The notes below the pieces were generated by a model. The model was not told where the DNA came from. It saw only the letters and a program-made list of their open reading frames with translations, and did not search any database. From a virus (Duplodnaviria; Heunggongvirae; Uroviricota; Caudoviricetes): a DNA stretch of 64,000 nucleotides. Both the position numbers and the translations under genes were made by a program. The stretch lies in the IMG/VR virus record IMGVR_UViG_3300033146_004404, positions 128,001 to 192,000 of that record, one strand, 5' to 3'. Position 1 is the first letter of the stretch; each line of letters starts with the position of its first letter. Below are positions 7,507 through 58,242 of this stretch, in pieces.

Positions 7507-7525
7507 TATTCCTAATTTGTTTGGT

Positions 7526-7536: not shown

Positions 7537-7541
7537 AACTA

Positions 7542-41292: not shown

Positions 41293-42785
41293 TTCATATT
41301 ATTTTTAATTTTATTTTCTGCCTCAGCTGCTCTAACTTTATTTGGTTGGTTGGTATTATTCTTTGCTTTTCTAGCGGCACTTCTCATAGCCCTACTGTTA
41401 CGTTCTTTTTTCTTATTTTCATCTCTTGCAGTTTCAGCTTTATTGTATATCTTAAGAGCTTCTGGATCCATTGGATTCATGCTAGCATATTTTTCAGCTG
41501 CTTCGGGAGAAATGTACTTAGCAACTAAAGCTTTGCCTGTAAAAGCATCTTTAACAGCAGTAGCTTTATTTGTTATTGCTTCTGTTCCTTTTTTAACATA
41601 CTTTTGATTAGCAATGCTTTGAACTATTTTTTGAGGTTTAGGTATTTTATCAAGGTTCAATCTCTTTTTAAGTGTTTTTGATGCAGCACCAAGAGCAGTA
41701 CTTTCTCGTGCGTTTTTAAACTTCTGGGTTGCTTTTATTGAAATTTCAAGATCGTATTTATTTGATACATTATTAGAAGCATTTTTAAGTTTTCTAGCTT
41801 CTGACGAAGCTTTTATTCTCTTAGTAGAATTCGATTTTGATTTAAAATTTACTTGCTGATCTCTTGCTTTGTTTATAAGATTGTTCATCTCTTTATTATA
41901 CTTATTAATAAGTTTTCTATTTTTAGCTTGTATAAGAGGGTTTTGAATTACTTTGAAGCGCTCTTCAAACTTACTTAGATTTTTTTGTTTTATTGCTTCT
42001 ATTTCATCGGCGATAGAGTTAGGACTATCTTTACTCATTCTTACTTTTGAATCTGGATCTATTTCTTCAGGCTCTTCATAAGTAGATCCTTCTGCTTCAG
42101 CTTTTGCTTTTGCTTTTGCTTTTGCTTTTGCTTGATTAACCCTTGACCTGTCATATGTTGTATCTTGTTCGTTTTCAGGCTTTCCAATTGAGTTTCTAAT
42201 TTCTTCACTTTCTGCACTGGCTTGTTTAGCATTTGCTGCCATTACTGCTGGATCAGTTTCATCTGTTTTATCATCTGTTTTATCATCTGTTTTATCATCT
42301 GTAGTTTTAGTGCCTTCAGCTCCAGCTTTATTTTTATTATTTTCGGCTTTAGCTTCTCTTCTGTACTTAGTTACCGTTTTCGTTGAGCTAGTAGTAATTG
42401 CGCTAATGATTTTATCATCTATTTCTTTAGCTTTATCTTTAACGTCATCTCCAGTATTTCCTTCTGTATTGAAGTTAAGCTTCTTCATCTGTTCCTTATC
42501 TTTGCTAAGGACTGATATTGCAAAAGCTAAATCATAGAATGCTGAAGACGGGTCGTTAAAAATTTTTACCATGGCTGAAGTAGGATTCTTTTCGATTCGA
42601 GTTTTAAGTTGAAGAACAAGATCTTGATCTATCTTTTTAATCACTTCCTTTGCTTTAGCAACAACTTCAGGAATTCTTTTCCATTGTTTCCCAAGCCCTT
42701 GAGTTTTAATTATTTGTTTGAAGCTATTGTTATCTTCATTTTCATTTAATGTCTTGTTGTTATAAAATTCTCTAAAAGAGCTCAT
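41289..42785 (-). CDS. K/A-rich late protein, putative internal head protein
   Basis: N-terminus MSSFREFYNNKTLNE resembles the T4 capsid-targeting sequence; TDDK and KA repeats; triple late motif upstream. Confidence 0.6.
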   Translation of the reverse strand: MSSFREFYNNKTLNENEDNNSFKQIIKTQGLGKQWKRIPEVVAKAKEVIKKIDQDLVLQLKTRIEKNPTSAMVKIFNDPSSAFYDLAFAISVLSKDKEQMKKLNFNTEGNTGDDVKDKAKEIDDKIISAITTSSTKTVTKYRREAKAENNKNKAGAEGTKTTDDKTDDKTDDKTDETDPAVMAANAKQASAESEEIRNSIGKPENEQDTTYDRSRVNQAKAKAKAKAKAEAEGSTYEEPEEIDPDSKVRMSKDSPNSIADEIEAIKQKNLSKFEERFKVIQNPLIQAKNRKLINKYNKEMNNLINKARDQQVNFKSKSNSTKRIKASSEARKLKNASNNVSNKYDLEISIKATQKFKNARESTALGAASKTLKKRLNLDKIPKPQKIVQSIANQKYVKKGTEAITNKATAVKDAFTGKALVAKYISPEAAEKYASMNPMDPEALKIYNKAETARDENKKKERNSRAMRSAARKAKNNTNQPNKVRAAEAENKIKNNMN

Positions 42786-42808
42786 TCGTTTTCTCCATTT
42801 TTGTTTAT

Positions 42809-42844
42809 ATTACCTTTACTATTACCTTTACTATTATCTTTACT
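42809..42844 (-). promoter_or_regulatory. Three tandem 12-bp late-promoter motifs
   Basis: + strand ATTACCTTTACT ATTACCTTTACT ATTATCTTTACT, i.e. AGTAAAG(A/G)TAAT x3 on minus. Confidence 0.7.
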
Positions 42845-42872
42845 TGACAAAAAAAGAATAATATGTTATAAT
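42844..42872 (+). promoter_or_regulatory. sigma70-type promoter, copy 5 (DnaE part A)
   Basis: TTGACA-N17-TATAAT, consensus spacer. Confidence 0.9.
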
Positions 42873-42890
42873 TAATTAAAAGGAGCAAAA

Positions 42891-44180
42891 ATGGCATATT
42901 CACATCTCCACGTCCATTCCCATCTTGGGAGTCAGCTTGATGGAATCGGAACATCGGAACAATACGCTAAATTAGCAAAAGAAATGGGACATCCATCTCT
43001 AGCAATAACAGATCACGGAAAAATGAACGGTCATTACGATCACTTCCTAGCTTGTAAAAAACATGGGATTAATCCTATATTTGGAGTTGAAGCATACGTT
43101 GAATTCGAGCTAGAACGATTTGAAGAAAAGAATGGAAAACAGAAAAGAGTTAGAAATAAGAATATGCACTTAGTCCTCCTTGCAAAGAACGAAGTCGGTT
43201 ATAAAAATCTTCTTAAGCTGAACTATAAATCTATGTCTGATGAAAAACATTTCTATTACAAGAATCATATAACCATAAAAGAACTCTTTGAAAACAAAGA
43301 AGGGATAATCGTAGGAACAGCTTGTATGGGATCTCCGTTCGCAAGACTATATAGAGACAAAAAAATAGTAGAAGCAGAGAAGTTATTTAAACTATTTAAG
43401 AATCAATTCGGTGAAGACTTCTATGCTGAGTTACAAATAAATGAAATAGATCATTCCATTGATAACTTTGAAGAAGGACAGAAATCTGTAAACGCATTTA
43501 TTTTGAGGTTAGCTAAAGAGTATGATGTTCCAGTTGTGCTTACTGGTGACGTTCATTATTCAAAAAAGGGGATGGCAAAAATACAAACACTAGCAATAGC
43601 AATCAGTAGAAAAGTAACTCTTGATGAACTTGATTGGGAACTTGAAGGAAAGAGTTTGTTTTATATGGACATTCCTGACTTTAAAAAATTCAATGAAGAT
43701 TGGGGTTATGGATATACAAATCAGCAGATCGAAGAATGGTGTGAGAACACTCAGCTTATTGCTGATAGATGTGACTTTCAATACAGAGAGAGGAATAGAG
43801 TTCTCCTTCCAACGTTTTCGGAAGATGATGATGCTTTATTAATAAAAGAAAGTATGAAAGGATTAGCTGAGAAATTAAAAGTTGAAGACTTTAAACATGC
43901 TCCAAAAGAATATAGAGAAAGATTAGCGAAAGAACTTGAGATCATATTAAGGAAGGGGTTTGCTTCATATATTATGATATTATGGGATGTGTTTAATTTT
44001 GCAAAAGAAGAAGATATAATGCGAGGTCCCGCTCGGGGCAGCGGTGGTGGTTCATTACTTTTGTATGCTCTTGATATAACAACATTAGATCCAATAAAAT
44101 ATGAACTCATCTTTGAACGTTTCTTGTCGGATCAGAGATCCGTAGATGTTGTTTATGATTGGTTTGGTGAAATAAAATAA
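42891..44180 (+). CDS. dnaE: DNA polymerase III alpha, part A (PHP domain plus start of palm)
   Basis: HLHVHS, AITDHG, GVEAY, HLVLLAKN.VGYKNL, GDVHY, RGSGGGS, LIFERFL. Confidence 0.95.
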   Translation: MAYSHLHVHSHLGSQLDGIGTSEQYAKLAKEMGHPSLAITDHGKMNGHYDHFLACKKHGINPIFGVEAYVEFELERFEEKNGKQKRVRNKNMHLVLLAKNEVGYKNLLKLNYKSMSDEKHFYYKNHITIKELFENKEGIIVGTACMGSPFARLYRDKKIVEAEKLFKLFKNQFGEDFYAELQINEIDHSIDNFEEGQKSVNAFILRLAKEYDVPVVLTGDVHYSKKGMAKIQTLAIAISRKVTLDELDWELEGKSLFYMDIPDFKKFNEDWGYGYTNQQIEEWCENTQLIADRCDFQYRERNRVLLPTFSEDDDALLIKESMKGLAEKLKVEDFKHAPKEYRERLAKELEIILRKGFASYIMILWDVFNFAKEEDIMRGPARGSGGGSLLLYALDITTLDPIKYELIFERFLSDQRSVDVVYDWFGEIK

Positions 44181-44191
44181 AGGAAGGTATA

Positions 44192-44359
44192 ATGGAAAAA
44201 GAATACACAGTGAAATGCGTTGAGTGTGGCAATAAATTTAAGGCAAGGTTTGAAGCGGATAAGCTTGATGGGTATGAAACATTAGCTTATTGCACAGAGT
44301 GTAATGACGTTAAAGAAGTTACTTTATCTGGAGCTTTTCAAGCAAAGAAAAAATCTTGA
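44192..44359 (+). CDS. Small zinc-ribbon protein (55 aa)
   Basis: Manually read MEKEYTVKCVECGNKF...YCTECNDVK..., AAGGAAGG SD; below the ORF-track cutoff. Confidence 0.7.
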   Translation: MEKEYTVKCVECGNKFKARFEADKLDGYETLAYCTECNDVKEVTLSGAFQAKKKS

Positions 44360-44384
44360 CAAAAAAAGAATAATATGCTATAAT
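44356..44384 (+). promoter_or_regulatory. sigma70-type promoter, copy 6 (helicase)
   Basis: TTGACA-AAAAAAGAATAATATGC-TATAAT. Confidence 0.9.
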
Positions 44385-44391
44385 TGAGTAT

Positions 44392-45708
44392 ATGGAAGAA
44401 ACAAAAGAAAAAATAAATGATATTATCAACACTTACTTAGATGGCTTTCAAGACCTTGGTTATGAAATAACGGAAGATATAAAGAAAGCTTTGTTGTTCG
44501 CAGAATTTTCAAAAAAGAATTTAATAATTTCTGGTTCAGCGGGAACTGGAAAATCAACATTTATAGAACTATTTAAGAAAAATTCAAAAAAGTCAGTCGT
44601 AACCCTAGCCCCCACTGGGGTTGCGGCTGTTAACGCAAACGGAGTAACCATACATTCGTTTTTTAAAATGGCAATAGGTATAGCAAACAAATATTCAGTT
44701 TCAAAAGAAGCTAAAGAAGTAGTTAATAAAGTCGATGTTATTATCATTGATGAAATCTCAATGGTTAGAGCAGATCTTATGGATGCTGTAGATTCACATT
44801 TAAGAATCCTTACAGGAAACGCTGATAAGCCTTTTGGTGGAATTAAGATAGTTGCTGTTGGAGATTTATTTCAATTGCCTCCAGTAGTTCAAAGCGGAAC
44901 TCCGGACTTTGCTTATATTAGAGATAACTTTTATTCAAAGTGGTTTTTTAGTGCGCCGGAGGTCGGTGAATTTAACGTAGTTGAATTAAAGAAGATCTTC
45001 CGTCAAAGCGAAGAACAGTTCATTAATACTTTAAATAGAATTCGTGTTGGAAAGCAGTCATGGGATGATCTCAAACTAATAAATACAAGAGTAGTAACAG
45101 AAGAGGAGTTTGGTAAAGACGGAGAAGATTATATTTATTTAGCGTCTACTAATAAGACAGCTGATAACGTAAACTCCGAGAGGTTAAAGAAAATAAATGA
45201 ACCATCGTTCTTTTTTCACTCATCTACTAAGGGCGATTACCCAAAAGGGTCTATGCCAGCTCCGGAAATAATTGAGTTAAAAAAGGGCTCTCAAGTAATG
45301 ATGCTTAGAAATATAGCAGCACACAATCTTTATAACGGCCAGGTTGGAAGAGTAATTGCTTTAGGTGAATACTTTATCAAAGTTAAATTTGGGAAAGCAG
45401 ATTATGTAATTAATAAAGAAATCTGGTTGAACAATGAATACTCGTTAGTTGATGGAAAAATACAACTGAAAGAACTTGGTTCATATACTCAGTATCCTTT
45501 AAAACTTGCTTATTCAATAACCATTCATAAAAGTCAAAGTAAAACTTATGAGAAGATTTTTATTGATTTAGGTGGCGGTGCTTTCAGTGCCGGACAGACT
45601 TATGTTGCTTTATCAAGATGCAAGACTCTTAATGGAATTGGCCTTAAGTATAAAATTGAAAAAAGAGATATAATAGTTGATAGAGTTTTAAAAGAGACTT
45701 TTCTTTGA
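44392..45708 (+). CDS. Pif1/RecD-like SF1B helicase
   Basis: GSAGTGKS, APTGVAA, TIHSFF, IIDEISM, GDLFQLPPV, YSITIHKSQ, YVALSR. Confidence 0.95.
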   Translation: MEETKEKINDIINTYLDGFQDLGYEITEDIKKALLFAEFSKKNLIISGSAGTGKSTFIELFKKNSKKSVVTLAPTGVAAVNANGVTIHSFFKMAIGIANKYSVSKEAKEVVNKVDVIIIDEISMVRADLMDAVDSHLRILTGNADKPFGGIKIVAVGDLFQLPPVVQSGTPDFAYIRDNFYSKWFFSAPEVGEFNVVELKKIFRQSEEQFINTLNRIRVGKQSWDDLKLINTRVVTEEEFGKDGEDYIYLASTNKTADNVNSERLKKINEPSFFFHSSTKGDYPKGSMPAPEIIELKKGSQVMMLRNIAAHNLYNGQVGRVIALGEYFIKVKFGKADYVINKEIWLNNEYSLVDGKIQLKELGSYTQYPLKLAYSITIHKSQSKTYEKIFIDLGGGAFSAGQTYVALSRCKTLNGIGLKYKIEKRDIIVDRVLKETFL

Positions 45709-45733
45709 CAGAAAAAGAATAATTGAATATAAT
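45705..45733 (+). promoter_or_regulatory. sigma70-type promoter, copy 7 (DnaE part B)
   Basis: TTGACA-GAAAAAGAATAATTGAA-TATAAT. Confidence 0.8.
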
Positions 45734-45769
45734 ATAATATAATAGACTTATTACCGAAGGAGATAAAAA

Positions 45770-46672
45770 TTGAAGACTTGGACTGAGCTTAAAGATTTTT
45801 GTGAAAAAAGCGAACGTTTTTTAGACTTAAGCGAAGAAGAAAAAAAAAGATATAAAAAGGAAATTGCTGTAGCAAAAAGATTTTATTCCAATAAAAGAAA
45901 TCTTTTTGACGAACTTCAAATAAAAAAGGATAGAATTGATAATAGATACATAATTCCTTTTTTATTAAAGCTTACTGACTGTATTGCCAACAAAAGACCT
46001 GCTTATATTCAGGTAAAGTCAGGAGCTTCAGGAGGGATAGACATAGACACCGATTGGCAGGGTGATGGTAGAGAGAAAATCTATAATTATCTCGTTGAAA
46101 AATATGGAATAGAAAGAGTTCTTCATGTAGGAACTTTTTCAGCTCTTGGGCCGGCATCAGCAGCAAAAGATGTTTTAAGAGCAAATAAAATTGACTTTGG
46201 TAAATCAAATGCCTTCACTAAAGTTCTTGAAAAGCAAGAAAGTTGGGAAGAGAATCTTGAGAGAATTAAAGGAACAGATCAAGCCAACTGGAGATTCTAT
46301 GAAGAGAATAAAGAAGTTCTTGAAGATGTTCCTCACTTAATTGGAAAGATAAGACAGTGTTTGCCTTGGAATCAAGATGTAGATATCATTGACGAATATG
46401 GAGTTAAAACAAAAAAGCTCATAAAGTTTATAGATCCAGCCCAGGATTATATTTCTTATATGGATAAAGATGGAAATAAACAATATACTAAAAATTATGA
46501 GGTATTCCCTTCTGGAAAGAAGAAGATATATGAAATAACTACCTCAAAAGGAAAAAAGATAAGAGCGTCTGCTAATCATAAATTTTTTTTAAGAAGTGGT
46601 GAAATTAAAAGATTAAAAGATTTAAAGAATGACGATGAAATCATCATTGATAGTAATTCCGCCTCCGTGTAA
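45770..46672 (+). CDS. dnaE: DnaE part B (palm DID motif) fused to split-intein N-half
   Basis: IDIDTDW..GREKIYNYLVEKYG..RV..VGTF...LIGKIRQ then CLPWNQ...SANHKFF (intein blocks A and B). Confidence 0.9.
   Translation: MKTWTELKDFCEKSERFLDLSEEEKKRYKKEIAVAKRFYSNKRNLFDELQIKKDRIDNRYIIPFLLKLTDCIANKRPAYIQVKSGASGGIDIDTDWQGDGREKIYNYLVEKYGIERVLHVGTFSALGPASAAKDVLRANKIDFGKSNAFTKVLEKQESWEENLERIKGTDQANWRFYEENKEVLEDVPHLIGKIRQCLPWNQDVDIIDEYGVKTKKLIKFIDPAQDYISYMDKDGNKQYTKNYEVFPSGKKKIYEITTSKGKKIRASANHKFFLRSGEIKRLKDLKNDDEIIIDSNSASV
46358..46669 (+). mobile_element. Split intein N-fragment (104 aa)
   Basis: Cys1 CLPWNQDV; SGKKKIYEITTSKGKKIRASANHKF; LKDLK..DEI; then stop. Confidence 0.9.
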
Positions 46673-46699
46673 AGGTAATGTAAACACGGAGGTGGAATT
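46655..46699 (+). promoter_or_regulatory. RBS-occluding hairpin with late promoter at its loop
   Basis: AATTCCGCCTCCGTGT / ACACGGAGGTGGAATT 16-bp stem (one G-U); GTAAAGGTAAT at 46669-46679; GGAGG in the 3' arm. Confidence 0.8.
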
Positions 46700-46702
46700 T
46701 AT

Positions 46703-47572
46703 ATGAAGTGCTTAATATGTGGAGAAGAAGTAGAGAGAAGTAGTTTTCATTTTCATTTAAAAAAACATAATATGAAAATGAAAGAGTATTATGTAAAATT
46801 CAATTTTGACTTTACGAAAAAAGATTATTTAGAAAATGAATATTGTAAAAATGAAAAATCACTGAAACAGATAACAAAAGAATGTGAAGAGAAATATAAT
46901 ATTTCAAATTTAAAAAGTACTGTACTTGATTTTGCTAAAGAATTTTATATAAAAAAAAGAACTATTTCAGGTGCTGGAAAATTGTATTTTGAAAATAATG
47001 AAATTTGGAATAAAGGGTGTACGAAAAAAGATAATGCTTCTGTAGCTTTATATTCAAAAAAGAAAAAAGAGCTTTATAAAAAAGTAAGAAAAAAACTAGA
47101 AAGTTTATCTATAAGTGAATTACTAAAGTTTAATATTCAACAGAATAAAAAAATTAGAAACATACTAAGAAAAAAGCTTATAGAAAAACAAGATAATATC
47201 TGTCCTATTTGCGAAAGCAGTTTAACAAATTTAGATAAAAGATTGCAACATATCCATCATATAGACAGAGACAATTCAAATGATACAGAAGAAAATTTAA
47301 TCGTTTTGTGTGCAAGCTGTCATACAAAATTATCTGGGCACAAACACAGACTTAAAGAACTTGATTTTATATTATCTTATGATGACTTTGTTAATAATTT
47401 AGAACTTGTTAGATATGAAATATCTAAAATAAAAAAAAATAAAGAAGATATGATGTGTCAATTAGAAAGCGTTGATAAATTTGATAAAAAAAAGTATTAT
47501 GAAAATATAAAGGAGAATGGAAAATGCTCGATAAACATATCAAAATTAAAACTGACAGAATTTATTCAATAG
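46703..47572 (+). CDS. Free-standing HNH homing endonuclease between split-intein halves
   Basis: N-terminal CLIC...H...H finger; CPIC...HIHHIDRDNSNDTEENLIVLCASCH. Confidence 0.9.
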   Translation: MKCLICGEEVERSSFHFHLKKHNMKMKEYYVKFNFDFTKKDYLENEYCKNEKSLKQITKECEEKYNISNLKSTVLDFAKEFYIKKRTISGAGKLYFENNEIWNKGCTKKDNASVALYSKKKKELYKKVRKKLESLSISELLKFNIQQNKKIRNILRKKLIEKQDNICPICESSLTNLDKRLQHIHHIDRDNSNDTEENLIVLCASCHTKLSGHKHRLKELDFILSYDDFVNNLELVRYEISKIKKNKEDMMCQLESVDKFDKKKYYENIKENGKCSINISKLKLTEFIQ

Positions 47573-47964
47573 TTGAAAAAGAAGAAGAAGAAACATATGA
47601 TATTCAAAACTTTCAAGATGATTGCTTTTTAAAAGAACCAAATTTTTTTGCTGATGGTTTTCTCGTTCATAATTCTGGAAAGCATGCTGGTGGAATCGTA
47701 ATTAGTGACAAACCAATTTATAACTATATTCCTGTTGATAGAGTTCAGGGAGAAGTTGTTACAGCATTTCCAGAAAGTGGAAGCAACACTGTTCTTGATG
47801 AGATCGGTATAATAAAATATGATATTTTAGGTATATCAATCTTGGATGTTATATCAGAAGCTATAGGTATGATAGACGAAGACATTTATTTAATTGAAGA
47901 TGACGATGGAATTCAGAAAGCGGTCCCTGCATCTTACATAGATAACATAATAAAAAAACTTTGA
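47524..47964 (+). CDS. dnaE: Split-intein C-half (50 aa, 47524-47673) fused to DnaE part C
   Basis: DRIYSI....EETYDI...PNFFADGFLVHN|SGKHAGGIVIS...IPV...GIIKYDILG; own AAGGAG SD inside the HNH gene. Confidence 0.9.
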   Translation: MLDKHIKIKTDRIYSIVEKEEEETYDIQNFQDDCFLKEPNFFADGFLVHNSGKHAGGIVISDKPIYNYIPVDRVQGEVVTAFPESGSNTVLDEIGIIKYDILGISILDVISEAIGMIDEDIYLIEDDDGIQKAVPASYIDNIIKKL

Positions 47965-47976
47965 GGTAATTTATTC

Positions 47977-49488
47977 GTGACTGATTTTGCATTATTGAAC
48001 TATAAAAAAAGAGAAAAAAAGAAAAAAATCATTGATGGCTTTTTATTAAATGCAAAGCAGGACGATAAAACACTCTTTAAGTGCTTGGTGTGTGGAAAAG
48101 AAACAAGTAAGACAATCTCTGCTTTGATTAAAAGAGGTATTGATTATAAAAAAATAGACGTAGAAAATAACGATACGATTTTTATGTGTCGAAAACATTC
48201 TCAAGAAGCTATAACTGAAAAGAAATATGGAGTTAAGAATAATTTTCAAAATCCAGCTTCAATAAAAAAGATCAAGAAAAAGAGAGAAAAAAAAAGAATA
48301 GAAAGTGGAGATCCTCTCTATTTTTTAAATCAAGGTGATCTTATCGTTTTTACTTGTGAAGTATGTGGAAAGAAAACATCCGTTCAGAAAAGAAAATACA
48401 CTAGTAATTTATGCAGAGAATGCAAGATAAAAAAGGCTAATAGAGAGAAAATTCTTCCTGTGATATTAAAAAGGCTTAAAGGCAACAATATTGAATTGTT
48501 AAAACCTTATTCTAACCAGAGAGAGTTAGAAGAAAACGTTCTTTATGATTTTAAGTGCTTAATTTGCAATAATACCTTTAAGGATCATCTTCACTCTCAT
48601 ATTCCAAGATGTCCTACTTGCTATCCAAAATATTCTTCAATTGGTGAAAAAGAAATAAAAGTTTTTATAGAGTCTTTAGGTTTTGATGTCATAGAAAACG
48701 ACAGAAAGATTCTTAGTGGCCTAGAGTTAGATATTTATATTCCGGATAAAAAAATAGCAATAGAGTTTAATGGTCTTTATTGGCATAGTGAGCAGAAAGG
48801 AAAAGATAAAAACTACCATTTAAACAAAACATTAAAATGTGCAGAAAAAGAAATTCAGTTAATTCACTTCTTTGAAGATGAATGGTATAATAAAAAAGAA
48901 ATAGTGAAATCCATTATTGCAACAAGATTGGGGATAGTAGGTAAAAGAATTTATGCTAGAAAGTGTATTATAAAAAATGTGACAAATAAAGAGGAAAGAA
49001 GATTCTTAGAAGAAAATCATATTCAGGGATATTATCCTTCTTCTATTAAGCTAGGCTTATACTATGAAGAAGAATTAGTTTTAATTTTAACTTTTGGAAA
49101 ATCACGATTTAGTAATCACGATTTTGAGTTAATAAGATTTGCTAATAAATTAAATTCTTCTGTGGTTGGTGGATTTTCTAAGCTTTTAAAATCTTTTAGA
49201 AAAGATAATAAAGGAAGCTTAATAACCTTTTCAGAGAGAAGGCTGTTTTCAGGAAATGTTTATGAGAAGAGCGGTTTCTCGTTTTTAAAAACGACCTTAC
49301 CAAATTATTACTATGTAGACGAAAACTATAATAAGAGATTTAATAGAATGAAATTTCAAAAGCATAAATTAAAGAATTTGTTAAAAGAGTACAATGAAGA
49401 ATTAACAGAGAAGGAAAATATGATAGTTAATAACTATGATAGAATTTGGGACTGTGGAAATAATTCTTTTGAAATAAAAAAACTTTAA
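47977..49488 (+). CDS. Homing endonuclease, zinc ribbons plus Vsr/DUF559-like nuclease (Hef-like)
   Basis: Several CxxC; S.GEKEI..FI, LELDIYIP...IAIEFNGLYWHS, IYARKC, NHIQG, RIWDCG. Confidence 0.8.
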   Translation: MTDFALLNYKKREKKKKIIDGFLLNAKQDDKTLFKCLVCGKETSKTISALIKRGIDYKKIDVENNDTIFMCRKHSQEAITEKKYGVKNNFQNPASIKKIKKKREKKRIESGDPLYFLNQGDLIVFTCEVCGKKTSVQKRKYTSNLCRECKIKKANREKILPVILKRLKGNNIELLKPYSNQRELEENVLYDFKCLICNNTFKDHLHSHIPRCPTCYPKYSSIGEKEIKVFIESLGFDVIENDRKILSGLELDIYIPDKKIAIEFNGLYWHSEQKGKDKNYHLNKTLKCAEKEIQLIHFFEDEWYNKKEIVKSIIATRLGIVGKRIYARKCIIKNVTNKEERRFLEENHIQGYYPSSIKLGLYYEEELVLILTFGKSRFSNHDFELIRFANKLNSSVVGGFSKLLKSFRKDNKGSLITFSERRLFSGNVYEKSGFSFLKTTLPNYYYVDENYNKRFNRMKFQKHKLKNLLKEYNEELTEKENMIVNNYDRIWDCGNNSFEIKKL

Positions 49489-49499
49489 AGGAAGTAAGC

Positions 49500-49724
49500 A
49501 TGAGCAAGAAAAAGAAAACTGTCAAAGAAGAGATTGCCTCTAAAAATGAAGTAGAAGTAGAAGTGAAAGCTCCTGAAGTAGAAGTAGAAGTAGAAGTGAA
49601 AGCTCCTGAAGTAGAAGTAAAAGTGAAAGCTCCTGAAGTAGAAGTAAAAGTGAAAGCTCCTGAAGTAGAAGTGAAGCAGACGCCAAAGTCTAATTACGAA
49701 ATTAGAACTGGAGTAAAGAAGTAA
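49500..49724 (+). CDS. Small low-complexity repeat protein (EVEVKVKAP)n
   Basis: 74 aa, AAGGAAG SD, followed by a terminator; ~27-bp tandem DNA repeats. Confidence 0.65.
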   Translation: MSKKKKTVKEEIASKNEVEVEVKAPEVEVEVEVKAPEVEVKVKAPEVEVKVKAPEVEVKQTPKSNYEIRTGVKK

Positions 49725-49758
49725 AAAAAGAGTTGGTTTAAAAACCAACTCTTTTTTT
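49724..49758 (+). terminator. Intrinsic terminator
   Basis: AAAAAAGAGTTGGTTT..AAACCAACTCTTTTTT. Confidence 0.8.
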
Positions 49759-49760
49759 AC

Positions 49761-49789
49761 TTGACAAAAAAAGAACAATATGGTATAAT
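49761..49789 (+). promoter_or_regulatory. sigma70-type promoter, copy 8
   Basis: TTGACA-AAAAAAGAACAATATGG-TATAAT. Confidence 0.9.
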
Positions 49790-49808
49790 GTAATATAAGG
49801 AGAAAAAA

Positions 49809-50027
49809 TTGGCTATAAAAAACAAAGAAGTAATGGGGCTAATTAACCAAAAAACAAAAGAGATGGAAAAGCATCTTAATAGTATTGAAGAAGAATTAAA
49901 AAAAGATGAAGATCGATTTAGTAAAGCAGCTGTGTCATTAAGTGTTGGTAAAGTTATGAAACTTCATCAAGATATAGCTTTTTTTCTCGGCGTTCATGAT
50001 GACAATCCAAAATACCTAGGCAACTAG
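49809..50027 (+). CDS. Hypothetical early protein
   Basis: TTG start with TAAGGAG SD. Confidence 0.65.
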   Translation: MAIKNKEVMGLINQKTKEMEKHLNSIEEELKKDEDRFSKAAVSLSVGKVMKLHQDIAFFLGVHDDNPKYLGN

Positions 50028-50075
50028 AGTTTATCGTGCTAACTCTAAATTTTTTTATGACGTAAAGATAAAGTA

Positions 50076-51001
50076 ATGAATAAATTAACCATTAATGAAG
50101 CAAAAAAGAGATTTAAAGAAAAGCACGGCGATAAATATAGATATTTTAATTTTTGTAGATATGAAGGAACAAGCCAAAAAATTAAAATAATATGTCCTAT
50201 CCATGGAGAGTTCTTTCAGAGTGTAAAAATGCACCTTGCTGGTCAAGGCTGTAGATTATGTAGTTATGAAAAAAGAGCAAGTCAATCAAAAAAAACAAGC
50301 CTTGTTTTTATAACTGAATCCAAAGAAGTTCATGGTGACGAATACGACTATTCAAAGGTCTTTTATTTAAGGAAAGACAAAAAGGTAAAAATAATATGTC
50401 CTATTCATGGAGTTTTTTTGCAAAGACCTGATGTTCATTTAAATGGAGCTGGATGTCCTACTTGCGGAAGAATAAAAAGTGACTTAAGTAGAAGAAAAAC
50501 TACAGAAGATTTCATTAATCGTTCTGTAAAAGTACACGGTAATAAATACAACTACGCTAAAACAAAATATGTTACAGCAAAAGAAAAAGTGTTAATATGT
50601 TGTAAAAAGCACGGAGAATTTTTACAAAGACCAAATAACCACTTAAACGGAGCTGGATGTCCTGTTTGTTGTGAGAGCAGGGAGAGAAGGAAATAGAGGA
50701 AATTCTTACAGAAAGAAAAATTGCTTTTACAAGACAAAAACTTTTTAAGGGTTGTAATGGAGTAAAGAGAGCTCTGCCTTTCGATTTCTTTTTAGAAGAG
50801 TTAAACGTTTGTATAGAATACGACAGAGTTCAGCATTATAAGCCAATAGCTTATTTTGGAGGTTCCGAAAAACTAAACAAGACCCAGTAAGCAGATAAAA
50901 TAAAAAATCTTTTTTGTAAAAAAGAAAAAATAAAATTAATACGAATTCCTTATTATGAATATAAGAATATAGAGGAGTTTCTTATGGAGAAAATAAACTA
51001 A
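50076..51001 (+). pseudogene. Decayed homing endonuclease (ICP.HG.F.Q....HL.G.GC repeats plus Vsr-like domain)
   Basis: ORF stops at 50696. Another frame from ~50681 reads GEKEIEEIL...LPFDFFL....CIEYDRVQHYKP...FGG, has an in-frame TAA at 50888, then LIRIPY to a stop at 51001. Confidence 0.85.
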
Positions 51002-52318
51002 ATGTTAAAAAAACTACAGGAAATGGTAGATGATCTTTCATCTACTAACTCAAAGAATGAAAAACTTGAGAGACTTAAAAAATACGATGATGAATTTACT
51101 CTTGCATTGATTAAGTACGCTCACGATCCGATGATACAATTTAATGTGACGTCGAAAACTATAAAAGCTTACACAGGCTCTCATAAAAATAGAGTTATGG
51201 TAGAGGATGACATATTCTCTTTGCTAGATCAGTTAAAAGACAGAAAACTCACTGGTCACGCAGCACTTGCAGCAGTAAGAGAATACGTAGATTCTTTTAA
51301 ACAGTATGAAGATCTTATCTATTCAATCATAGATAAAAATTTAAAAATAAGAATGAGTGACAGCTCAATAAACAAAGTATTCCCAGATCTCATCCCAGAG
51401 TTCAAAGTGCAACTCGCAGACAAATATAATAAAGACAGACTTCCTCCATTCAAAACAGAGAAGTGGTACTCATCAAGAAAACTGGACGGTGTTAGATGTA
51501 TTGCAGTAGTGGATTTTACTTTTGGGAAAGAAGTAGTGGACTTTTACAGCAGGACTGGCAAAGAGTTCTTCACGCTTGGCGTCGTAGGTGTCGCAATAAA
51601 AAAAGAATTAAAAAAAATTTATACCAACGAAAAATTCATCTTAGACGGCGAAATGTGTATTGTTGACGAGAAAGGTGATGAAAGCTTTTCTGAAGTTATA
51701 AAGCTTGTCAGAAAGAAAGATTATTATATAGAAAATCCAAGATATAAAATCTTTGATATAATTCTTTTTGATGACTTTATAAAGAAATCAGGAAAAACTC
51801 TTTTTAGTAAACGCTATGATAAATATATGCAGATTAAATCACCTTCTGGCATTCTTGATCCTGTAAAACAGACAGTCATTGAAGACGAAGAAGATTTTAA
51901 CATTTGTAATGTCGAAGCTATTACGAATGAATGGGAAGGGTTAATAATAAGAAAAGATTGTGAATATGCCGGAAAACGTTCTAAGAACATGCTAAAAGTA
52001 AAACAATTTCATGAAGCAGAATATGTTGTTAAAAGTATTGGAACTGATATGGTTAGATATATTGATGAGACTACTGGAGTTGAAGCTGAAGAAGAAATGC
52101 TTAAGCGAATTAACATAATCCACAAAGGAAACAATGTCGGTGTTGGTTCTGGATTTTCTTTACAGCAGAGAAAAGATTTCTTTAAAGACCCTTCATTAAT
52201 AATAGGAAAGACAATAACAGTTAAATTTTTTGAAGAGTCAATGGATGCCAAATCAGGAATGTATTCATTAAGGTTTCCAGTATTGAAAGCGATTCATGGA
52301 AAAGAGAGAGTAGTGTAA
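51002..52318 (+). CDS. ATP-dependent DNA ligase
   Basis: KLDGVRC, YSRTGK, LDGE, IFD, EGLIIR, KRSKNMLKVK, VGSGF, SLRFP. Confidence 0.95.
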   Translation: MLKKLQEMVDDLSSTNSKNEKLERLKKYDDEFTLALIKYAHDPMIQFNVTSKTIKAYTGSHKNRVMVEDDIFSLLDQLKDRKLTGHAALAAVREYVDSFKQYEDLIYSIIDKNLKIRMSDSSINKVFPDLIPEFKVQLADKYNKDRLPPFKTEKWYSSRKLDGVRCIAVVDFTFGKEVVDFYSRTGKEFFTLGVVGVAIKKELKKIYTNEKFILDGEMCIVDEKGDESFSEVIKLVRKKDYYIENPRYKIFDIILFDDFIKKSGKTLFSKRYDKYMQIKSPSGILDPVKQTVIEDEEDFNICNVEAITNEWEGLIIRKDCEYAGKRSKNMLKVKQFHEAEYVVKSIGTDMVRYIDETTGVEAEEEMLKRINIIHKGNNVGVGSGFSLQQRKDFFKDPSLIIGKTITVKFFEESMDAKSGMYSLRFPVLKAIHGKERVV

Positions 52319-52350
52319 AGATAATTATATAAAAAAGTAAGGATTATATA

Positions 52351-53814
52351 ATGACTTTAATAGAAGAGATTAGAAGAAACTCTGGGGTTGAGTTAAATGA
52401 GACAATTCATGGACGATTAACAATAAGAGCTATAAAAAAGATTCAGAAAGAAGTTGATAAAATGTATTCTAAGGAAGCAGCTTCCTTAGACTCTAGTTCC
52501 AGTAAAGCTGATAAAAAAGATCTTGAATATTTTGGAATTTTTAGAAGAAGAGTTAGCGAAGTAGTGATAGAGCTTGAAACCCTTGATAAGAAGACTAATT
52601 CATCAAGAGGATTTGAGAGAAGAATGAATAAAGAGAAATTCAAATCTCTTGAAACTAAATATTCTGCTTTAATTTCTGCTTCAAGACATATGAAGAAATC
52701 AAGAAAGTTGAAAATATTAGGGGTTCTAGTTCTAACTTCAGGAATAAGTATGTATATAGCCACCAGAATTGGTGTTGATCTTCCTAATCCTGGTGGCTTT
52801 AATGCGTGGATAAATATGTTATTAGTTGGTGGTGGAATGGGGGCTCTTGGATCGTCGGATTTGAAAAACATGCAAAAAAACGAGGAAATGGATAAAGCCC
52901 TTGTAAGGCTAGTATCAGAAGAGCTTGAGAAAAAGTCTAAGGGAGACTATAAAAAAAAGAGCAGTAAATTAGATGAAAGCGTAAGTGATAAGGTTGAAAG
53001 TTCAAAGAAAAGGATCTTTAGAAAAATAAGAATAGCAGTTGAGCTATCACGAAAAAAACGTTCAAAGAAGTTTTTTGCTGGCTTGTATAAAATATTGAAA
53101 AAGAAAGGTCAGCAAGAAGAAAAAATAGATGAAGCTTTAATAACTAAGGCTGATATTAAAATGCTTTTCTGGGGACATAATTCCCCAGAAGAAACTAAAT
53201 CAGTTAATAAAATGACTAAAGATATTTTACGTATTAGCTTTAAAGAGATAAAGAATATAGATAAGATAGAAAAATCTGTAGATAAACTTTTGAGTCTACT
53301 TATTAAGAATGAATATGATAAACAAGATGAGAAAGATTACAAAGAAATACAGAAGGTCTTTAGAAAAAATAAAATAAAAATTGAAAGTGTTATAGGTGGA
53401 GATTCTGATGCTCAAGGAGTTCATCAGTTAGAATCTAAAAAAACAGTTTTTTCTGTAGATATAACAAAGAATAGAGAAATAGTAAAATCTACTATTATTC
53501 ATGAATTAACGCATAAGAAACAGTCAGAGCTCTTAAAGAAATACGCCCCAAGAACTTGGAAACGTCTTTGGATGAGAATAAATGACAAAGATTATCACGA
53601 TATTGCAATGGAAGTAGGTGCTTTTCATGAAGAGTATGTTTATTTAATAGAGAAGATGGAAAAAGCTGACAAGAAAACAAAAAGAGTATTATCAGCTTTT
53701 TTAATAGAAGAGATTTTCTACAGAGATAACTTAAAGGACAATATTTTGAGGGACTATCCAAAAAATGATCCTGTAGTAAAATTTATAAAGAGAGTTAAAG
53801 TAATAAAAATATAA
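52351..53814 (+). CDS. Leader-family protein: coiled coil, two hydrophobic helices, C-terminal HExxH zincin-like domain
   Basis: MTLIEEIRRNSGVELNE; IIHELTHKKQ...Y....MEVGAF; late motif at 52315. Confidence 0.65.
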   Translation: MTLIEEIRRNSGVELNETIHGRLTIRAIKKIQKEVDKMYSKEAASLDSSSSKADKKDLEYFGIFRRRVSEVVIELETLDKKTNSSRGFERRMNKEKFKSLETKYSALISASRHMKKSRKLKILGVLVLTSGISMYIATRIGVDLPNPGGFNAWINMLLVGGGMGALGSSDLKNMQKNEEMDKALVRLVSEELEKKSKGDYKKKSSKLDESVSDKVESSKKRIFRKIRIAVELSRKKRSKKFFAGLYKILKKKGQQEEKIDEALITKADIKMLFWGHNSPEETKSVNKMTKDILRISFKEIKNIDKIEKSVDKLLSLLIKNEYDKQDEKDYKEIQKVFRKNKIKIESVIGGDSDAQGVHQLESKKTVFSVDITKNREIVKSTIIHELTHKKQSELLKKYAPRTWKRLWMRINDKDYHDIAMEVGAFHEEYVYLIEKMEKADKKTKRVLSAFLIEEIFYRDNLKDNILRDYPKNDPVVKFIKRVKVIKI

Positions 53815-53826
53815 GAAGGGAATATA

Positions 53827-54210
53827 ATGCTAGACATAGATAAAGAAGTGCTGAATGAGAAGTATAATAATGGAGACATGGAATACTTTTTTAGTAAAGC
53901 AGAAAAAATTGCTGACTTCTTACTAACTAGAAACTATAAAGTTTTTGATAGCGAAAAAAGAGCCGATATGGTTCAAGAGTGCCTTGAAAATCTTTGGAAG
54001 AAACAACTCCAAGGAAAGATAGATGGATCTAAAAACCTAATGGCTTTCATTTGGAAAAATTCAGATTTTAGGATAAAAGAGATATTCAGAAAAGAGAATA
54101 ACAGGAACAGAATTGCTCCTTTTATTTCATACGATAATGAAGAATTTGAGTTTCTTAAGGGAATCGGCAGCGAGAAGTATAATAAAGAATTCTTTGAAAT
54201 GCTTGCTTGA
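53827..54210 (+). CDS. Putative late sigma factor (sigma region-2 only, T4 gp55-like)
   Basis: EKIADFL...DMVQECLENLWK......SKNLMAFIW.....IKEIFRKE resembles sigma region 2 / gp55. Confidence 0.6.
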   Translation: MLDIDKEVLNEKYNNGDMEYFFSKAEKIADFLLTRNYKVFDSEKRADMVQECLENLWKKQLQGKIDGSKNLMAFIWKNSDFRIKEIFRKENNRNRIAPFISYDNEEFEFLKGIGSEKYNKEFFEMLA

Positions 54211-54212
54211 TC

Positions 54213-54321
54213 TTATTCTCTCCTTGTAAAGATAAAGGAGAGAATAATTATTTTCTCCCTGTAAAGATAATATAAAGGAGAGAATAATTATTTTCTCCCT
54301 GTAAAGATAATATAAAGGAGA
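54213..54321 (+). repeat. Three tandem 34-40 bp hairpin units, each with late motif and SD
   Basis: TTATT(C/T)TCTCC(T/C)T-GTAAAGATAA(TATA)-A(A)GGAGAGAATAA repeated at 54213, 54248 and 54288. Confidence 0.9.
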
Positions 54322-54325
54322 AGCT

Positions 54326-55027
54326 ATGACCTTAAGAAAGAAGATAGAAATGACTTCTATCAATGAAGAAAATGAGTATTTAGTAGAAGGAATTCGATTC
54401 TTCAAAACTTCAAAAAAAATCACTTCATATATAAAAAAAATAGAAAAAAAGAATACCAACGGATCTCTTGATGGCCTAATAGAGCGACTTGAAAGAGTAT
54501 CTAAAAACTTTGAAGTCGCCGAAAGAATGCACCAAACTGGTAGAAAAACTGAAGCAAAACAATTATATTTACAGTACAAAAAAGATAATATTTTATTAAT
54601 GACTGCTCTAAATAAAGAATCAACTAAGAAAATATTAGTAAGACTAGGAATAGGATTAATTGTATTACAAGTTCTTTTAAGTATGACTACCGGAATTGGT
54701 TTATATGAAAGATTATTTATGAGAGGAGCATCGACAGCAGCAAGAATGGCTGGAAGATCAGGAGCTTTAGTTTCAACTGAAGTTCTTAGCGATAATCTTC
54801 CTGGCTCATCAGGGGCTCCTTCTTTAGAATCCCTTGACGCATCGCAACTCGTACTAAACAATGAAATAAAAAACTTAAAGAAAGATGTAGGTTTTTCTAA
54901 AGATGCAATAAAAGACAAAGCTAAAGAACTTGCAGCTCTTGAGAAGTTTGAAAAAGCACTAAAAAAGTTTAATAAAGCAAATGGAAAAGGACTAAGCATC
55001 TTAGATAAGATATTAGGTAGAAAATAA
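54326..55027 (+). CDS. Late membrane-helix protein, paralogue of the next gene
   Basis: LVEGIRFFKTSKKI..YIKKIEKKN..G..D.LI..L; hydrophobic ILVRLGIGLIVLQVLL. Confidence 0.7.
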   Translation: MTLRKKIEMTSINEENEYLVEGIRFFKTSKKITSYIKKIEKKNTNGSLDGLIERLERVSKNFEVAERMHQTGRKTEAKQLYLQYKKDNILLMTALNKESTKKILVRLGIGLIVLQVLLSMTTGIGLYERLFMRGASTAARMAGRSGALVSTEVLSDNLPGSSGAPSLESLDASQLVLNNEIKNLKKDVGFSKDAIKDKAKELAALEKFEKALKKFNKANGKGLSILDKILGRK

Positions 55028-55062
55028 TTTAATCTGTAAAGTTAAGTATATAAATAATAACA

Positions 55063-55797: not shown

Positions 55798-55821
55798 GAT
55801 ATAGATCAACTAGATAATTAA

Positions 55822-55850
55822 TTGACAAAAAAAGAATAATATGTTATAAT
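55822..55850 (+). promoter_or_regulatory. sigma70-type promoter, copy 9 (DnaE part D, leaderless)
   Basis: TTGACA-N17-TATAAT, ATG 6 nt downstream. Confidence 0.9.
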
Positions 55851-55856
55851 TCTTAT

Positions 55857-58205
55857 ATGAGAATACTAAGAAAAATAACAAAACGAGAATTGAAAGATCA
55901 TCTGTATGAACTTAATACAGATGATCTTAGTCTTTATAAGGAAGCTAATAACCCTAATTCAATTGGAATCTTCCAATTGAATGGCGCTCTTGCTAGTGAG
56001 ATTATAAAGAAAGTTAGACCTTCATGCTTCGACGAAATAAATGCTGTGTCTGCATTCGCCAGACCAGGAACCTCAAGCTTCGTAGAACAATACGTAGAAA
56101 ACAGAGAAACAAAAAAATCTCCTTATTCAAATCAAGTAGCTGACTTGCTTACTGAAACAAACAGTATTTGTTTATATCAGGAACAAGCCATGTCTATTTT
56201 TAACAAGATAGGTGGGTTCTCACTCGAAGAGTGCGACGGAATCAGAGGTCTTATGAAAAAGCTTGGAAAGGCAGATAAGAAAAAAGAAGATCTTGATAGA
56301 TGGAATGTTATCATAGCTCAGTTTAATAAAGGCGCAGTTGAAAAAGGCATGTCAATCAAAGATGCTAAAATGATAGCAGCCGACCTTTTGAAAATGAGTT
56401 CTTATAATTTTAACAAGTGTTTCTCTGGCGACATGGTTATAGATAAAGATAATTCTACTGGCTGGGTTCCTACTATAGAAGAAATGTATCTTACAAGAAA
56501 CGATAGAGAGTGGGCCAAAAATAACGGGCATGATTTTCTTCATTATAAGTATAAAACAAAGGGGTATGTCTCTGGATTTTCTTTACAGGAAGATGGAAAG
56601 CTCTATAAGAATAAAATAAAAAATATTTATTTTCAAGGTAAAAAAGATGTTTATAGAATAACTCTTGAAAACGGAAAGATGATAGAAGTCACTGATAATC
56701 ATAGGTTTCCGGTAATAATTGAAGGCGAAGTAGAATATAAAAGTATTGATTCTGGATTATCTATCAATGACTCTCTTTTATCTAACGATGGATATGAGAT
56801 AACGGATTTTAAAGGAAAATATAATTTTACAAAAAAAAATAATGAAACAAGAAAATTTAAAACTGCAGTTTACTATGGAAGTGGAGAAAAAAATACTGGT
56901 TATATAAATGGTGAGTCTATTAAATTTAAAGAGAATAGAAAAATTCTTCTAGAACAAGCTGAAAATATTTGTCCTATTTGCGGAAATAATATAAATAGAA
57001 AAGAATGCCATCATATCGATGGCAATAGATACAATAACGAACTTGAAAATCTTATAGTCCTTTGTCCTTCTTGCCATAAAAAAGAAGATTATAAAATTGG
57101 CAGAAATAGAAAAGGAGATAAGGGGAAAATTACATCTTTATCTAAGATCGTTTCCATTGAAAAGATCGGTGAAAAAAATACGTATGATGTCGAAATGAAC
57201 GCACCTTTTCATACAGTTTCTGTAAATGGAATAGTTGCTCACAATAGCCACAGTACAGCATATGCTTATATAGCGGCACAGACACTTTACCTCTCATATT
57301 ATTTCCGTAAGTATTTTTATGCTTCTGTTCTTCACTATGAAGTTGGAAGAGATAAGTACTTAATAGAGAGATTGAAAGCGGTTAAGAAACAAGGCTTTAA
57401 CATTCTTCCTCCAAACATCAATAAGTCAAAAGTAGCAATCTCTCCAACTGGAGATGACAATATTGTTTTTGGCTTATTCGATATTAAAGGAGTTGGTGAA
57501 GTTCCTGCAACTACAATAGTTTCACTACAGCCATTCGGTTCATTTGAAGATTTCTTAATAAGAATTCTTGGGCAGAAAGTGTCAGTAACGGTAATAAAAG
57601 CACTGATTGGAGTTGGAGCTTTTGATGAGATTTATAACCTTGATAGAAAAAGACTGATCGAAACTTTTGATATTTATTGGAAAAATAAAAAGAGTACGAA
57701 AGTACCAGAAAAGCTTTTAGCTGTCTGGGAGGCCGCTCAGGAAGAAATCAGGGCAATTCCTGACATGACCGCTTCCATTGAAGAACTTAGAGATTTAGAA
57801 AAGAAGTACTTTGGGTTCAATTTTTTCTTGAGTCCATTCAACGAAAAATTTATTGATGCTGTTGATTTAATGGTAACTAAGGGAATGATCTATAGAAACT
57901 TTGAAGTTATTAAAACTGGATCTATGAAGGTTCCAGCAATAGTTAGCGGCATAAGAATACTTAATGACAGGAACGGAAATGAGATGGCATTTCTTGAGCT
58001 TGAGGATATTGAAGGTGAATCAATAAGTATTCCTATCTTTCAAAGTTTCTGGAAAGTATTGAAAGCAAGATTTATTCAGGGAAAAGTTCATATGATAAAT
58101 CTTTATTACAATAAAGAACAAGAGCAGATAATGTTTGGAAGTAAAAGGTTCATAAAGAAAGAAACAGAAATATCAAGACTTGTGAAACGATTAGATAATC
58201 TTTGA
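55857..58205 (+). CDS. dnaE: DnaE part D (fingers, HhH, OB fold) with cis intein
   Basis: GIFQL, A..RPG, LYQEQ.M, YNFNK|SHSTAYA, ILPPNINKS, FGL..IKGVG, OB-fold NGNEMAFLELED. Confidence 0.95.
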   Translation: MRILRKITKRELKDHLYELNTDDLSLYKEANNPNSIGIFQLNGALASEIIKKVRPSCFDEINAVSAFARPGTSSFVEQYVENRETKKSPYSNQVADLLTETNSICLYQEQAMSIFNKIGGFSLEECDGIRGLMKKLGKADKKKEDLDRWNVIIAQFNKGAVEKGMSIKDAKMIAADLLKMSSYNFNKCFSGDMVIDKDNSTGWVPTIEEMYLTRNDREWAKNNGHDFLHYKYKTKGYVSGFSLQEDGKLYKNKIKNIYFQGKKDVYRITLENGKMIEVTDNHRFPVIIEGEVEYKSIDSGLSINDSLLSNDGYEITDFKGKYNFTKKNNETRKFKTAVYYGSGEKNTGYINGESIKFKENRKILLEQAENICPICGNNINRKECHHIDGNRYNNELENLIVLCPSCHKKEDYKIGRNRKGDKGKITSLSKIVSIEKIGEKNTYDVEMNAPFHTVSVNGIVAHNSHSTAYAYIAAQTLYLSYYFRKYFYASVLHYEVGRDKYLIERLKAVKKQGFNILPPNINKSKVAISPTGDDNIVFGLFDIKGVGEVPATTIVSLQPFGSFEDFLIRILGQKVSVTVIKALIGVGAFDEIYNLDRKRLIETFDIYWKNKKSTKVPEKLLAVWEAAQEEIRAIPDMTASIEELRDLEKKYFGFNFFLSPFNEKFIDAVDLMVTKGMIYRNFEVIKTGSMKVPAIVSGIRILNDRNGNEMAFLELEDIEGESISIPIFQSFWKVLKARFIQGKVHMINLYYNKEQEQIMFGSKRFIKKETEISRLVKRLDNL
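56418..57245 (+). mobile_element. Intein with HNH endonuclease (276 aa) at the FNK/SH site of DnaE
   Basis: CFSGDM start; TDNHRF; CPICG...HHIDGNRYNNELENLIVLCPSCH; ends TYDVEM.APFHTVSVNGIVAHN/S. Confidence 0.95.
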
Positions 58206-58242
58206 TGTAAAGGTAATAATATCAAACGATAAAAGGAAAAAT

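Follow-up and report, generated by a model that had tools for sequence, protein, structure and literature searches.

We analyzed a 64,000-nucleotide (nt) stretch of phage DNA, bases 128001-192000 of the IMG/VR virus record IMGVR_UViG_3300033146_004404 (referred to here as the window), and focused on its gene for the alpha subunit of DNA polymerase III (Pol III alpha, DnaE). Two open reading frames (ORFs) of this gene, B and C, encode adjoining segments of the polymerase palm. B ends in the N-terminal half of an intein and C begins with the C-terminal half, and a free-standing gene of the HNH homing-endonuclease type lies between them. We consider it very likely that this arrangement is a "fractured gene," in which a split intein and a free-standing HNH gene form a mobile unit inserted in the DnaE palm at ..KIRQ/SGKHAGG... 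The features of the element, with window coordinates, strand, and length in amino acids (aa), are as follows.

45705..45733, + strand: sigma-70-type promoter of B (TTGACA, 17 nt, TATAAT; 12/12)
45770..46357, + strand: N-extein, a DnaE palm segment (GGIDIDTDW ... HLIGKIRQ), 196 aa (Pfam, PHROG 405)
46358..46672, + strand: N-intein half, 104 aa, with Cys1 and block B S-x-x-H (His74) (ORF, Pfam, alignment)
46655..46699, + strand: RNA hairpin with a 16-bp stem, in which 46655-46670 pairs with 46684-46699
46703..47572, + strand: free-standing HNH homing-endonuclease gene, 289 aa (Pfam HNH, PHROG HNH families)
47510..47515, + strand: Shine-Dalgarno sequence of C (AAGGAG), within the 3' end of the HNH ORF
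47524..47673, + strand: C-intein half, 50 aa, with block F (TYDI) and block G (FLVHN) (ORF, alignment of six alleles)
47674..47964, + strand: C-extein, the end of the DnaE palm, from the +1 Ser (SGKHAGGIVIS...) (Pfam DNA_pol3_alpha 207-260)

Two intein halves at the break in the DnaE palm

The polymerase part of B closes with ...HLIGKIRQ at residue 196, and Cys197 is Cys1 of the N-intein half, whose block A reads CLPWNQ. B stops at a TAA codon at position 46670, and a further in-frame TAA follows at 46676. The Pfam Intein_splicing model matches B with an E-value of 6e-9 and 36.3 bits (cut-off, 35.8). An earlier reading of this DNA, made from the letters and their translations (the sequence-only reading), had held that B ends in a 104-aa N-intein half and then stops. 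The ORF, the motifs, and the Pfam match bear this out, and the coordinates of the half stand. The same reading ended the half at SANHKF, which is incorrect: this motif is block B, and the N-half continues for about 25 residues. The ORF and motifs of C are as had been claimed, with a 50-aa C-half that ends in FLVHN and is followed by Ser.

The position of the junction was established by comparison with two IMG/VR relatives, L005 and L006. Both encode HLIGKIRQSGKHAGGIVVS uninterrupted in one frame, with RQSGKHAGG intact, and they are 79-83% identical to the window over the aligned extein. These intein-less genes corroborate the RQ-SGKHAGG junction put forward in the sequence-only reading. At the DNA level, the window carries an insert of 1316 nt relative to L005 and L006 (46358-47673), placed exactly between the Gln and Ser codons. 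Removal of the intein yields a normal host protein sequence, matching that of the two intein-less relatives. The insert cannot be a single open frame, because 1316 is not divisible by three.

We then considered the residues required for splicing. Across six aligned alleles, Cys1, [ST]xxH (His74), block-F Asp26, His49, and Asn50 are invariant, and the +1 residue is Ser or Cys in every allele. The sequence features of a class-1 intein are all present: the block A nucleophile, block B, blocks F and G, the His-Asn pair, and the +1 nucleophile. In these alignments, identity to the window is 36-77% for the N-half and 49-76% for the C-half taken together with 12 extein residues. Between the window and the related contig L009, the ratio of nonsynonymous to synonymous substitution rates (dN/dS, or omega) was 0.07 for the N-half, 0.14 for the C-half, and 0.16 for the B extein, with synonymous sites saturated. 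As judged from these ratios, the intein halves are under purifying selection and are constrained at least as much as the B extein.

The two halves also appear suited to each other. The N-half has 20 Lys and Arg versus 16 Asp and Glu residues (net charge, +4), and the C-half has 6 versus 12 (net charge, -6); by composition, the halves are charge-complementary. Complex prediction of the two halves, run on alignments built for this analysis, gave an ipSAE of 0.77, compared to 0.00 for the best control. In a benchmark of this score, 0.77 was attained by 58 of 80 solved complexes and by 2 of 110 mismatched pairs. Contacts agreed between runs to at least 92%, and the partner pLDDT was at least 73. 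The closest modelled contacts join an N-half strand at about residues 58 to 62 with C-half residues 13 to 17. The score expresses likeness more than independent proof, because split-intein complexes have already been solved. With this reservation, the model supports binding of the halves into one fold. Taken on its sequence features, the split intein looks functional, and trans-splicing of B and C is predicted.

DnaE is encoded in four pieces

The source is a 201-kb virus record, about 80% complete according to CheckV, and the GC content of the window is about 32%. The sole Pol III alpha of the record is spread over four ORFs, and no second DnaE was found in the 201 kb.

Piece A, 42891-44180: PHP domain and the start of the palm
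Piece B, 45770-46672: 300 aa, mid-palm, followed by the N-intein half
Piece C, 47524-47964: C-intein half and the end of the palm
Piece D, 55857-58205: fingers, HhH, and C-terminal part, 782 aa

In Pfam DNA_pol3_alpha, B covers positions 103-193 and C covers positions 207-260; in the PHROG 405 polymerase profile, B matches 444-550 and C matches 548-618. Because these ranges adjoin, the exteins of B and C abut. Between A and B lie a zinc-ribbon ORF and a gene for a Pif1-type helicase. The genes between C and D, among them a Hef-like homing endonuclease and a ligase, are unrelated to DnaE. The A|B and C|D breaks carry no intein and are kept in all relatives with enough sequence, with different intervening genes; L009, for example, has a ligase gene between pieces A and B. 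An Rfam search of window positions 42700-58400 returned no introns or other RNA families, so these two breaks cannot be attributed to recognizable introns. Wherever the sequence of a relative suffices, all four pieces are found intact and conserved. Evidently, three or more polypeptides make up the polymerase in this phage clade. Among cultured phages, no close relative was found, and the DnaE genes of isolates match B and C at just 25-44% identity.

The fragmentation of DnaE raises the question of whether the intein halves could act as a clasp, holding B and C together noncovalently with no peptide bond formed, much as interaction domains do in the split NrdA of phage Aeh1. The clade tolerates the unspliced A|B and C|D breaks, and the fragmented Aeh1 NrdA is reported to assemble without splicing (PMC3045599). 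A clasp alone would need no Cys1, block-B His, terminal Asn, or +1 nucleophile. Yet all class-1 splicing residues are invariant, even though the N-halves are just 36-77% identical; distant alleles, 39-51% identical in both halves, are still catalytically invariant, and the +1 residue varies between Ser and Cys only. We therefore regard a nonsplicing clasp as improbable and favor trans-splicing.

The same split recurs in other metagenomic contigs

The N-intein was used as the query in an exhaustive HMMER search of 1.8 billion representatives, which gave 296 hits at an E-value of 1e-3 or lower. Of the best 150 hits, five are inserted at this position of DnaE (K[IT]RQ|C); each of them stops 90-107 residues past Cys1, and they are therefore N-halves. 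No contiguous intein at the RQ|S site was present among the best 150 of the 296 hits.

The split at RQ|S, or one residue off, is shared by at least eight further contigs from metagenomes, which come from several independent samples. Separate N and C ORFs are present in L009, L010, L011/L012, L013, L014, L015-L017, L018, and L019/L020. Between their N and C ORFs, these loci contain the following.

L013, L015-L017, L018, and L019/L020: a full-length HNH homologue of 351-360 aa
L009: just a 65-aa remnant of the 3' end of the HNH gene
L010 and L011/L012: 109-164 nt and no endonuclease gene
L014: an unrelated 124-aa ORF

The insertion site of L013 is displaced by one residue (RQM|SKH). In L015, L018, and L019, the HNH gene overlaps C by 49-52 nt. 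Occupancy of the site is patchy, as the sites of L005 and L006 are empty and those of L013, L015, L018, and L019 hold the full tandem-HNH gene. L009 is 64% identical to the window in the extein, with 77% identity in the N-half and 74% in the C-half; the corresponding values for L015 are 54% in the extein and 61% and 64% in the two halves. The closest extein relatives of the window lack the element, and distant ones carry it, with inteins more alike than the exteins. On these sequence comparisons, the distribution is what a homing cycle would predict. We claim no direction of gain or loss, because the eight-row tree has no starred branch.

The HNH gene and its decay

The sequence-only reading had placed a free-standing HNH gene between the halves, overlapping C, and this description was correct. 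The HNH ORF (46703-47572) has a strong Shine-Dalgarno sequence of its own, GGAGGTGG, and overlaps C by 49 nt in another frame. Its product contains an N-terminal CxxC/H..H finger and one intact module, CPIC ... HIHHID ... ENL ... CASCH. The Pfam HNH match has an E-value of 1.4e-4 and 22.4 bits (cut-off, 21.4), and PHROG HNH families match with E-values down to 1e-9. Homologues are 48-70% identical, and all those found in a collection of 5.8 billion proteins are located between the halves of DnaE split inteins.

The copy in the window lacks a second HNH module, through an in-frame deletion of about 62 aa; this module is present in five of five full-length homologues. The one-module protein may be a decaying, inactive, or nicking-only enzyme. 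Together, the loci form a graded series, from two modules (the five full-length homologues) to one (the window), to a 3' remnant (L009), to none (L010 and L011). The split intein is intact at every stage of this decay, as expected because an essential gene would depend on it.

The loss of endonuclease sequence, with a module missing in the window and a remnant in L009, could also be seen as part of a decaying locus, in which the insertion has inactivated this segment of DnaE and the phage uses the host polymerase or another enzyme. This explanation is very improbable, given that purifying selection acts on the two exteins as well as on the two intein halves (omega, 0.07-0.16), that all four DnaE pieces are conserved in the relatives, and that the record holds no second DnaE.

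A related HNH module is found within DnaE itself. Piece D contains a contiguous 276-aa intein with an in-frame HNH domain, outside the split element (56418..57245, + strand). It sits at FNK|SHS, and the split site of the cyanobacterial inteins is three residues away. Over 54 aa, the HNH core of this intein shares 48% identity with the free-standing HNH protein, and a 58-nt stretch is 76% identical at the DNA level. The intein is missing from D of L006, L009, L010, and L011; D measures 505-510 aa in L009-L011, versus 782 aa in the window. One genome thereby holds both free-standing and fused versions of related HNH modules, which fits a model of intein origin by endonuclease invasion but is no proof of descent.

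This contiguous HNH intein in the same genome, and the fact that B and the HNH ORF share a frame 10 codons apart, could suggest that the locus is an assembly or sequencing artifact or a recently broken contiguous bifunctional HNH intein, perhaps recoded, but we give this next to no credence: two in-frame TAA codons separate B from the HNH ORF, the HNH gene and C each have a strong Shine-Dalgarno sequence and ATG of their own, a frame change is required at the HNH/C boundary in an insert whose 1316 nt are not a multiple of 3, independent samples show the three-ORF layout again, the N and HNH ORFs being 2, 45, 46, or 50 nt apart, and alleles without the endonuclease gene still have separate N and C ORFs. 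Among the loci, the N-to-HNH spacing is 2, 30, 45, 46, or 50 nt (30 in the window), and in L015 the N and HNH ORFs are in different frames. Because the spacing varies among relatives, we regard it as a coincidence that B and the HNH ORF of the window share a frame and rejected this as a sign of a recently broken intein.

Hairpin and promoter elements around the HNH gene

The promoter of B is one of five copies of a conserved box of about 30 nt (repeat family D3). The copies precede A, the Pif1 helicase gene, B, a small ORF at 49809, and D. No copy precedes C, and C is therefore most likely cotranscribed with B.

The right arm of the hairpin at the end of B buries the HNH Shine-Dalgarno sequence GGAGGTGG, and the loop carries the stop codon of B together with the motif GTAAAGGTAA (46669-46678). 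The minimum free energy is -29.9 kcal/mol (z, -5.5), and 0 of 200 shuffled sequences fold as well. The hairpin and the loop motif are kept in five loci, comprising the window and four other HNH-bearing loci that were aligned; 4 of 13 pairs change on both sides across these loci.

The general form of the loop motif, GTAAAGRTAA, occurs 16 times in the window, compared to 0.7 copies expected (20-fold enrichment). Every copy lies shortly upstream of a start codon, in the orientation of the gene, and one of these genes encodes a baseplate-wedge protein. Examples are listed below.

42810-42843: three copies
54226-54310: three copies
50062: one copy
58207: one copy

GTAAAGRTAA is probably a late (or middle) promoter element of the phage. 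By analogy with mobE of phage Aeh1, for which this logic is established, and with the 15 of 16 fractured-gene endonucleases for which it has been reported (PMC2677866), we infer that expression of the HNH gene would be switched on by a late transcript.

Proposed mechanism

According to our model, the sigma-70-type promoter before B would drive joint early transcription of B, the HNH gene, and C. In this early transcript, the 16-bp hairpin would hide the HNH ribosome-binding site, so that B and C would be translated and the nuclease would not. The basic N-half and the acidic C-half would then associate into one HINT fold, and class-1 trans-splicing (Cys1, S/T-x-x-H, block-F Asp, His-Asn, and +1 Ser) would produce a seamless ...KIRQSGKHAGG... 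palm, which would work alongside pieces A and D, made from their own genes. At a late stage of infection, transcription from the loop motif would give an RNA without the 5' arm of the hairpin; the Shine-Dalgarno sequence would be freed and the HNH protein made. In a mixed infection, the nuclease would cut an intein-less dnaE close to its RQ/SGKH codons; the entire element would then be copied in during repair (homing).

Several observations weigh against this model. At A|B and C|D, the clade already makes do with separate DnaE polypeptides and no inteins, and covalent joining of B and C is therefore not obviously required. Homing by the HNH copy of the window may be impaired, because its second module is missing. 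The label "late" for the loop motif is based on its position and one annotated late gene. Finally, the hairpin shows modest covariation, with several of its pairs disrupted at some of the loci. Within the mechanism, the presumed activity and target of the HNH protein form the least certain step, because one of its two HNH modules has been lost.

A broader reading would treat the split intein and a dedicated tandem-HNH endonuclease as one co-evolving mobile unit specific for DnaE RQ|S, in a lineage that captures several stages of intein and endonuclease evolution in one gene. We put this forward tentatively and hold it to be rather less than probable. If true, the stages would be an empty site, a full endonuclease gene, a half-decayed one, a remnant, a split intein alone, and a fused HNH module (piece D). 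The series would then offer direct natural evidence for free-standing endonuclease genes invading mini-inteins to give bifunctional inteins, and the family would supply some nine natural pairs of allelic split-intein halves, in +1 Ser and +1 Cys forms, possibly orthogonal to existing tools.

Comparison with known systems

Dassa, London, Stoddard, Schueler-Furman, and Pietrokovski described fractured genes at 26 metagenomic loci from ocean and lake samples in 2009 (PMC2677866). These included three DnaE loci with split inteins at noncyanobacterial sites, so the arrangement in the window is not new. The sequence-only reading had noted the likeness, and the layout, hairpin, and overlap indeed match those published. 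In both cases, the N-gene, endonuclease gene, and C-gene are adjacent on one strand, the host is a replication enzyme, and the DnaE site is other than the cyanobacterial one. The lengths of the halves, 104 and 50 aa, fall inside the published ranges (N, 88-105 aa; C, 33-54 aa). The hairpin in the 5' untranslated region with a late-promoter-like element and the overlap of the endonuclease gene with C (49 bp here) are also shared; the 2009 study reported such endonuclease hairpins, carrying late-promoter elements, at 15 of 16 loci, and its gene overlaps ranged from 6 to 69 bp. Unlike the GIY-YIG or Vsr-like endonucleases of that catalogue, where HNH enzymes were said to be ones that "could fracture genes," the endonuclease here belongs to a small dedicated HNH family that is tandem-HNH in its full-length members. 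The loop motif of the window is GTAAAGRTAA rather than the T4-type TATAAATA.

What is new here is the HNH-type endonuclease and the decay series; the insertion site is possibly new as well. Searches for InBase site names gave no match for the RQ|S site, and PMC4760082 gives Pol III alpha intein sites a-g by domain alone. In the literature library searched, no paper turned up that places an HNH gene between the halves of a split intein. Actinophage inteins were surveyed in 2025 (bioRxiv 10.1101/2025.01.02.630785), with HNH domains listed only in frame and split inteins only with Vsr-like nucleases. The HNH-type endonuclease extends the 2009 catalogue of GIY-YIG and Vsr-like types. With its relatives, the locus forms a natural series of the homing cycle, in which the endonuclease decays stepwise and the split intein is kept in an essential polymerase.

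The gp41-1 split intein pairs Cys1 with a +1 Ser. Among structures in the PDB, the best matches of the N-half are a DnaB mini-intein (E-value, 1.9e-5) and gp41-1 (E-value, 4.5e-5), and Npu DnaE is a marginal match (E-values, 0.04-0.06). The alignment to gp41-1, from a cyanophage-like helicase (6QAZ, 6RIZ), spans only about 50 residues; the halves in the window are longer, and the host protein and site are different.

The Ssp and Npu DnaE inteins resemble the element in being naturally split class-1 inteins of Pol III alpha. In contrast to the palm site before SGKHAGG described here, they interrupt the fingers, before CFNKSH; their halves are encoded at distant loci with no endonuclease gene. 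The sequence-only reading had already distinguished the two sites, in line with our finding that the FNK|SH region lies in piece D rather than at the B/C junction. In this phage, that region is occupied by the different, contiguous HNH intein. It had also been proposed that the halves could be a new orthogonal split-intein pair, a plausible prediction. Natural split inteins are in wide use as protein-ligation tools, with demand for new pairs that are fast or orthogonal, and the family offers several diverged alleles with +1 Ser and +1 Cys.

The nrdA/mobE locus of phage Aeh1 (Gibb and Edgell; Friedrich et al.; PMC2677866 and PMC3045599) likewise has a free-standing HNH gene that separates the two halves of an essential gene. 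The mobE ribosome-binding site is sequestered in a late-promoter hairpin, and its 3' end overlaps the downstream half (PMC2677866). The HNH gene of the window is bordered on both sides by the parts of a complete split intein; NrdA of Aeh1, in contrast, is free of inteins, and its halves come together noncovalently.

A match between the C-intein and Bacillus phage KLEB27-3 was rejected as spurious, as the DnaE of this phage has no intein at this site. In the cultured jumbo phage vB_BauM_KLEB27-3 (OM634661.1, positions 4378-8748; our L001), DnaE consists of two ORFs, separated by a gene annotated as an HNH endonuclease. The split lies further downstream, after GLFQIELI, and no intein halves are evident in the translations. 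For annotation, loci of the kind described here are easily miscalled as pseudogenes or as multiple "DNA polymerase III alpha" fragments.

Neighboring elements

Other insertions occur in the DnaE pieces of the relatives. A group I intron interrupts piece B at the catalytic GASGG|IDIDTDW sequence in L006 (6258-6443), L005 (about 6255-6460), and L009 (about 3775-3980). The Rfam Intron_gpI match has 65.1 bits (cut-off, 50) and an E-value of 1.6e-16, and the window does not have this intron. It was detected only when the short stretch was searched alone; a whole-locus scan at the gathering threshold missed it. In L006 (8719-11529), a second split intein, unlike the one in the palm, breaks piece D at LEE|C(D)SIRG, and its halves are separated by an HNH-like gene of 294 aa. 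At this site, piece D of the window is uninterrupted: GGFSLEECDGIRG.

Directly after piece C of the window lies the 503-aa Hef-like homing-endonuclease gene (47977-49488; PHROG 3339, E-value of 3e-117). It is flanked by a 21-nt direct repeat, 86% identical between copies (47949-47969 and 49473-49493), and each copy spans the final codons and stop of the preceding ORF. The repeats look like the insertion footprint of an endonuclease cassette.

Further downstream, positions 50076-50696 encode a 206-aa protein in which a unit of about 68 aa, bearing a CPIHG...GCxxC zinc motif, occurs three times; a GTAAAGATAA motif lies upstream. The protein matches PHROG 681 ("endonuclease") and DUF723/DUF4379, and it looks like the DNA-binding remnant of another homing endonuclease.

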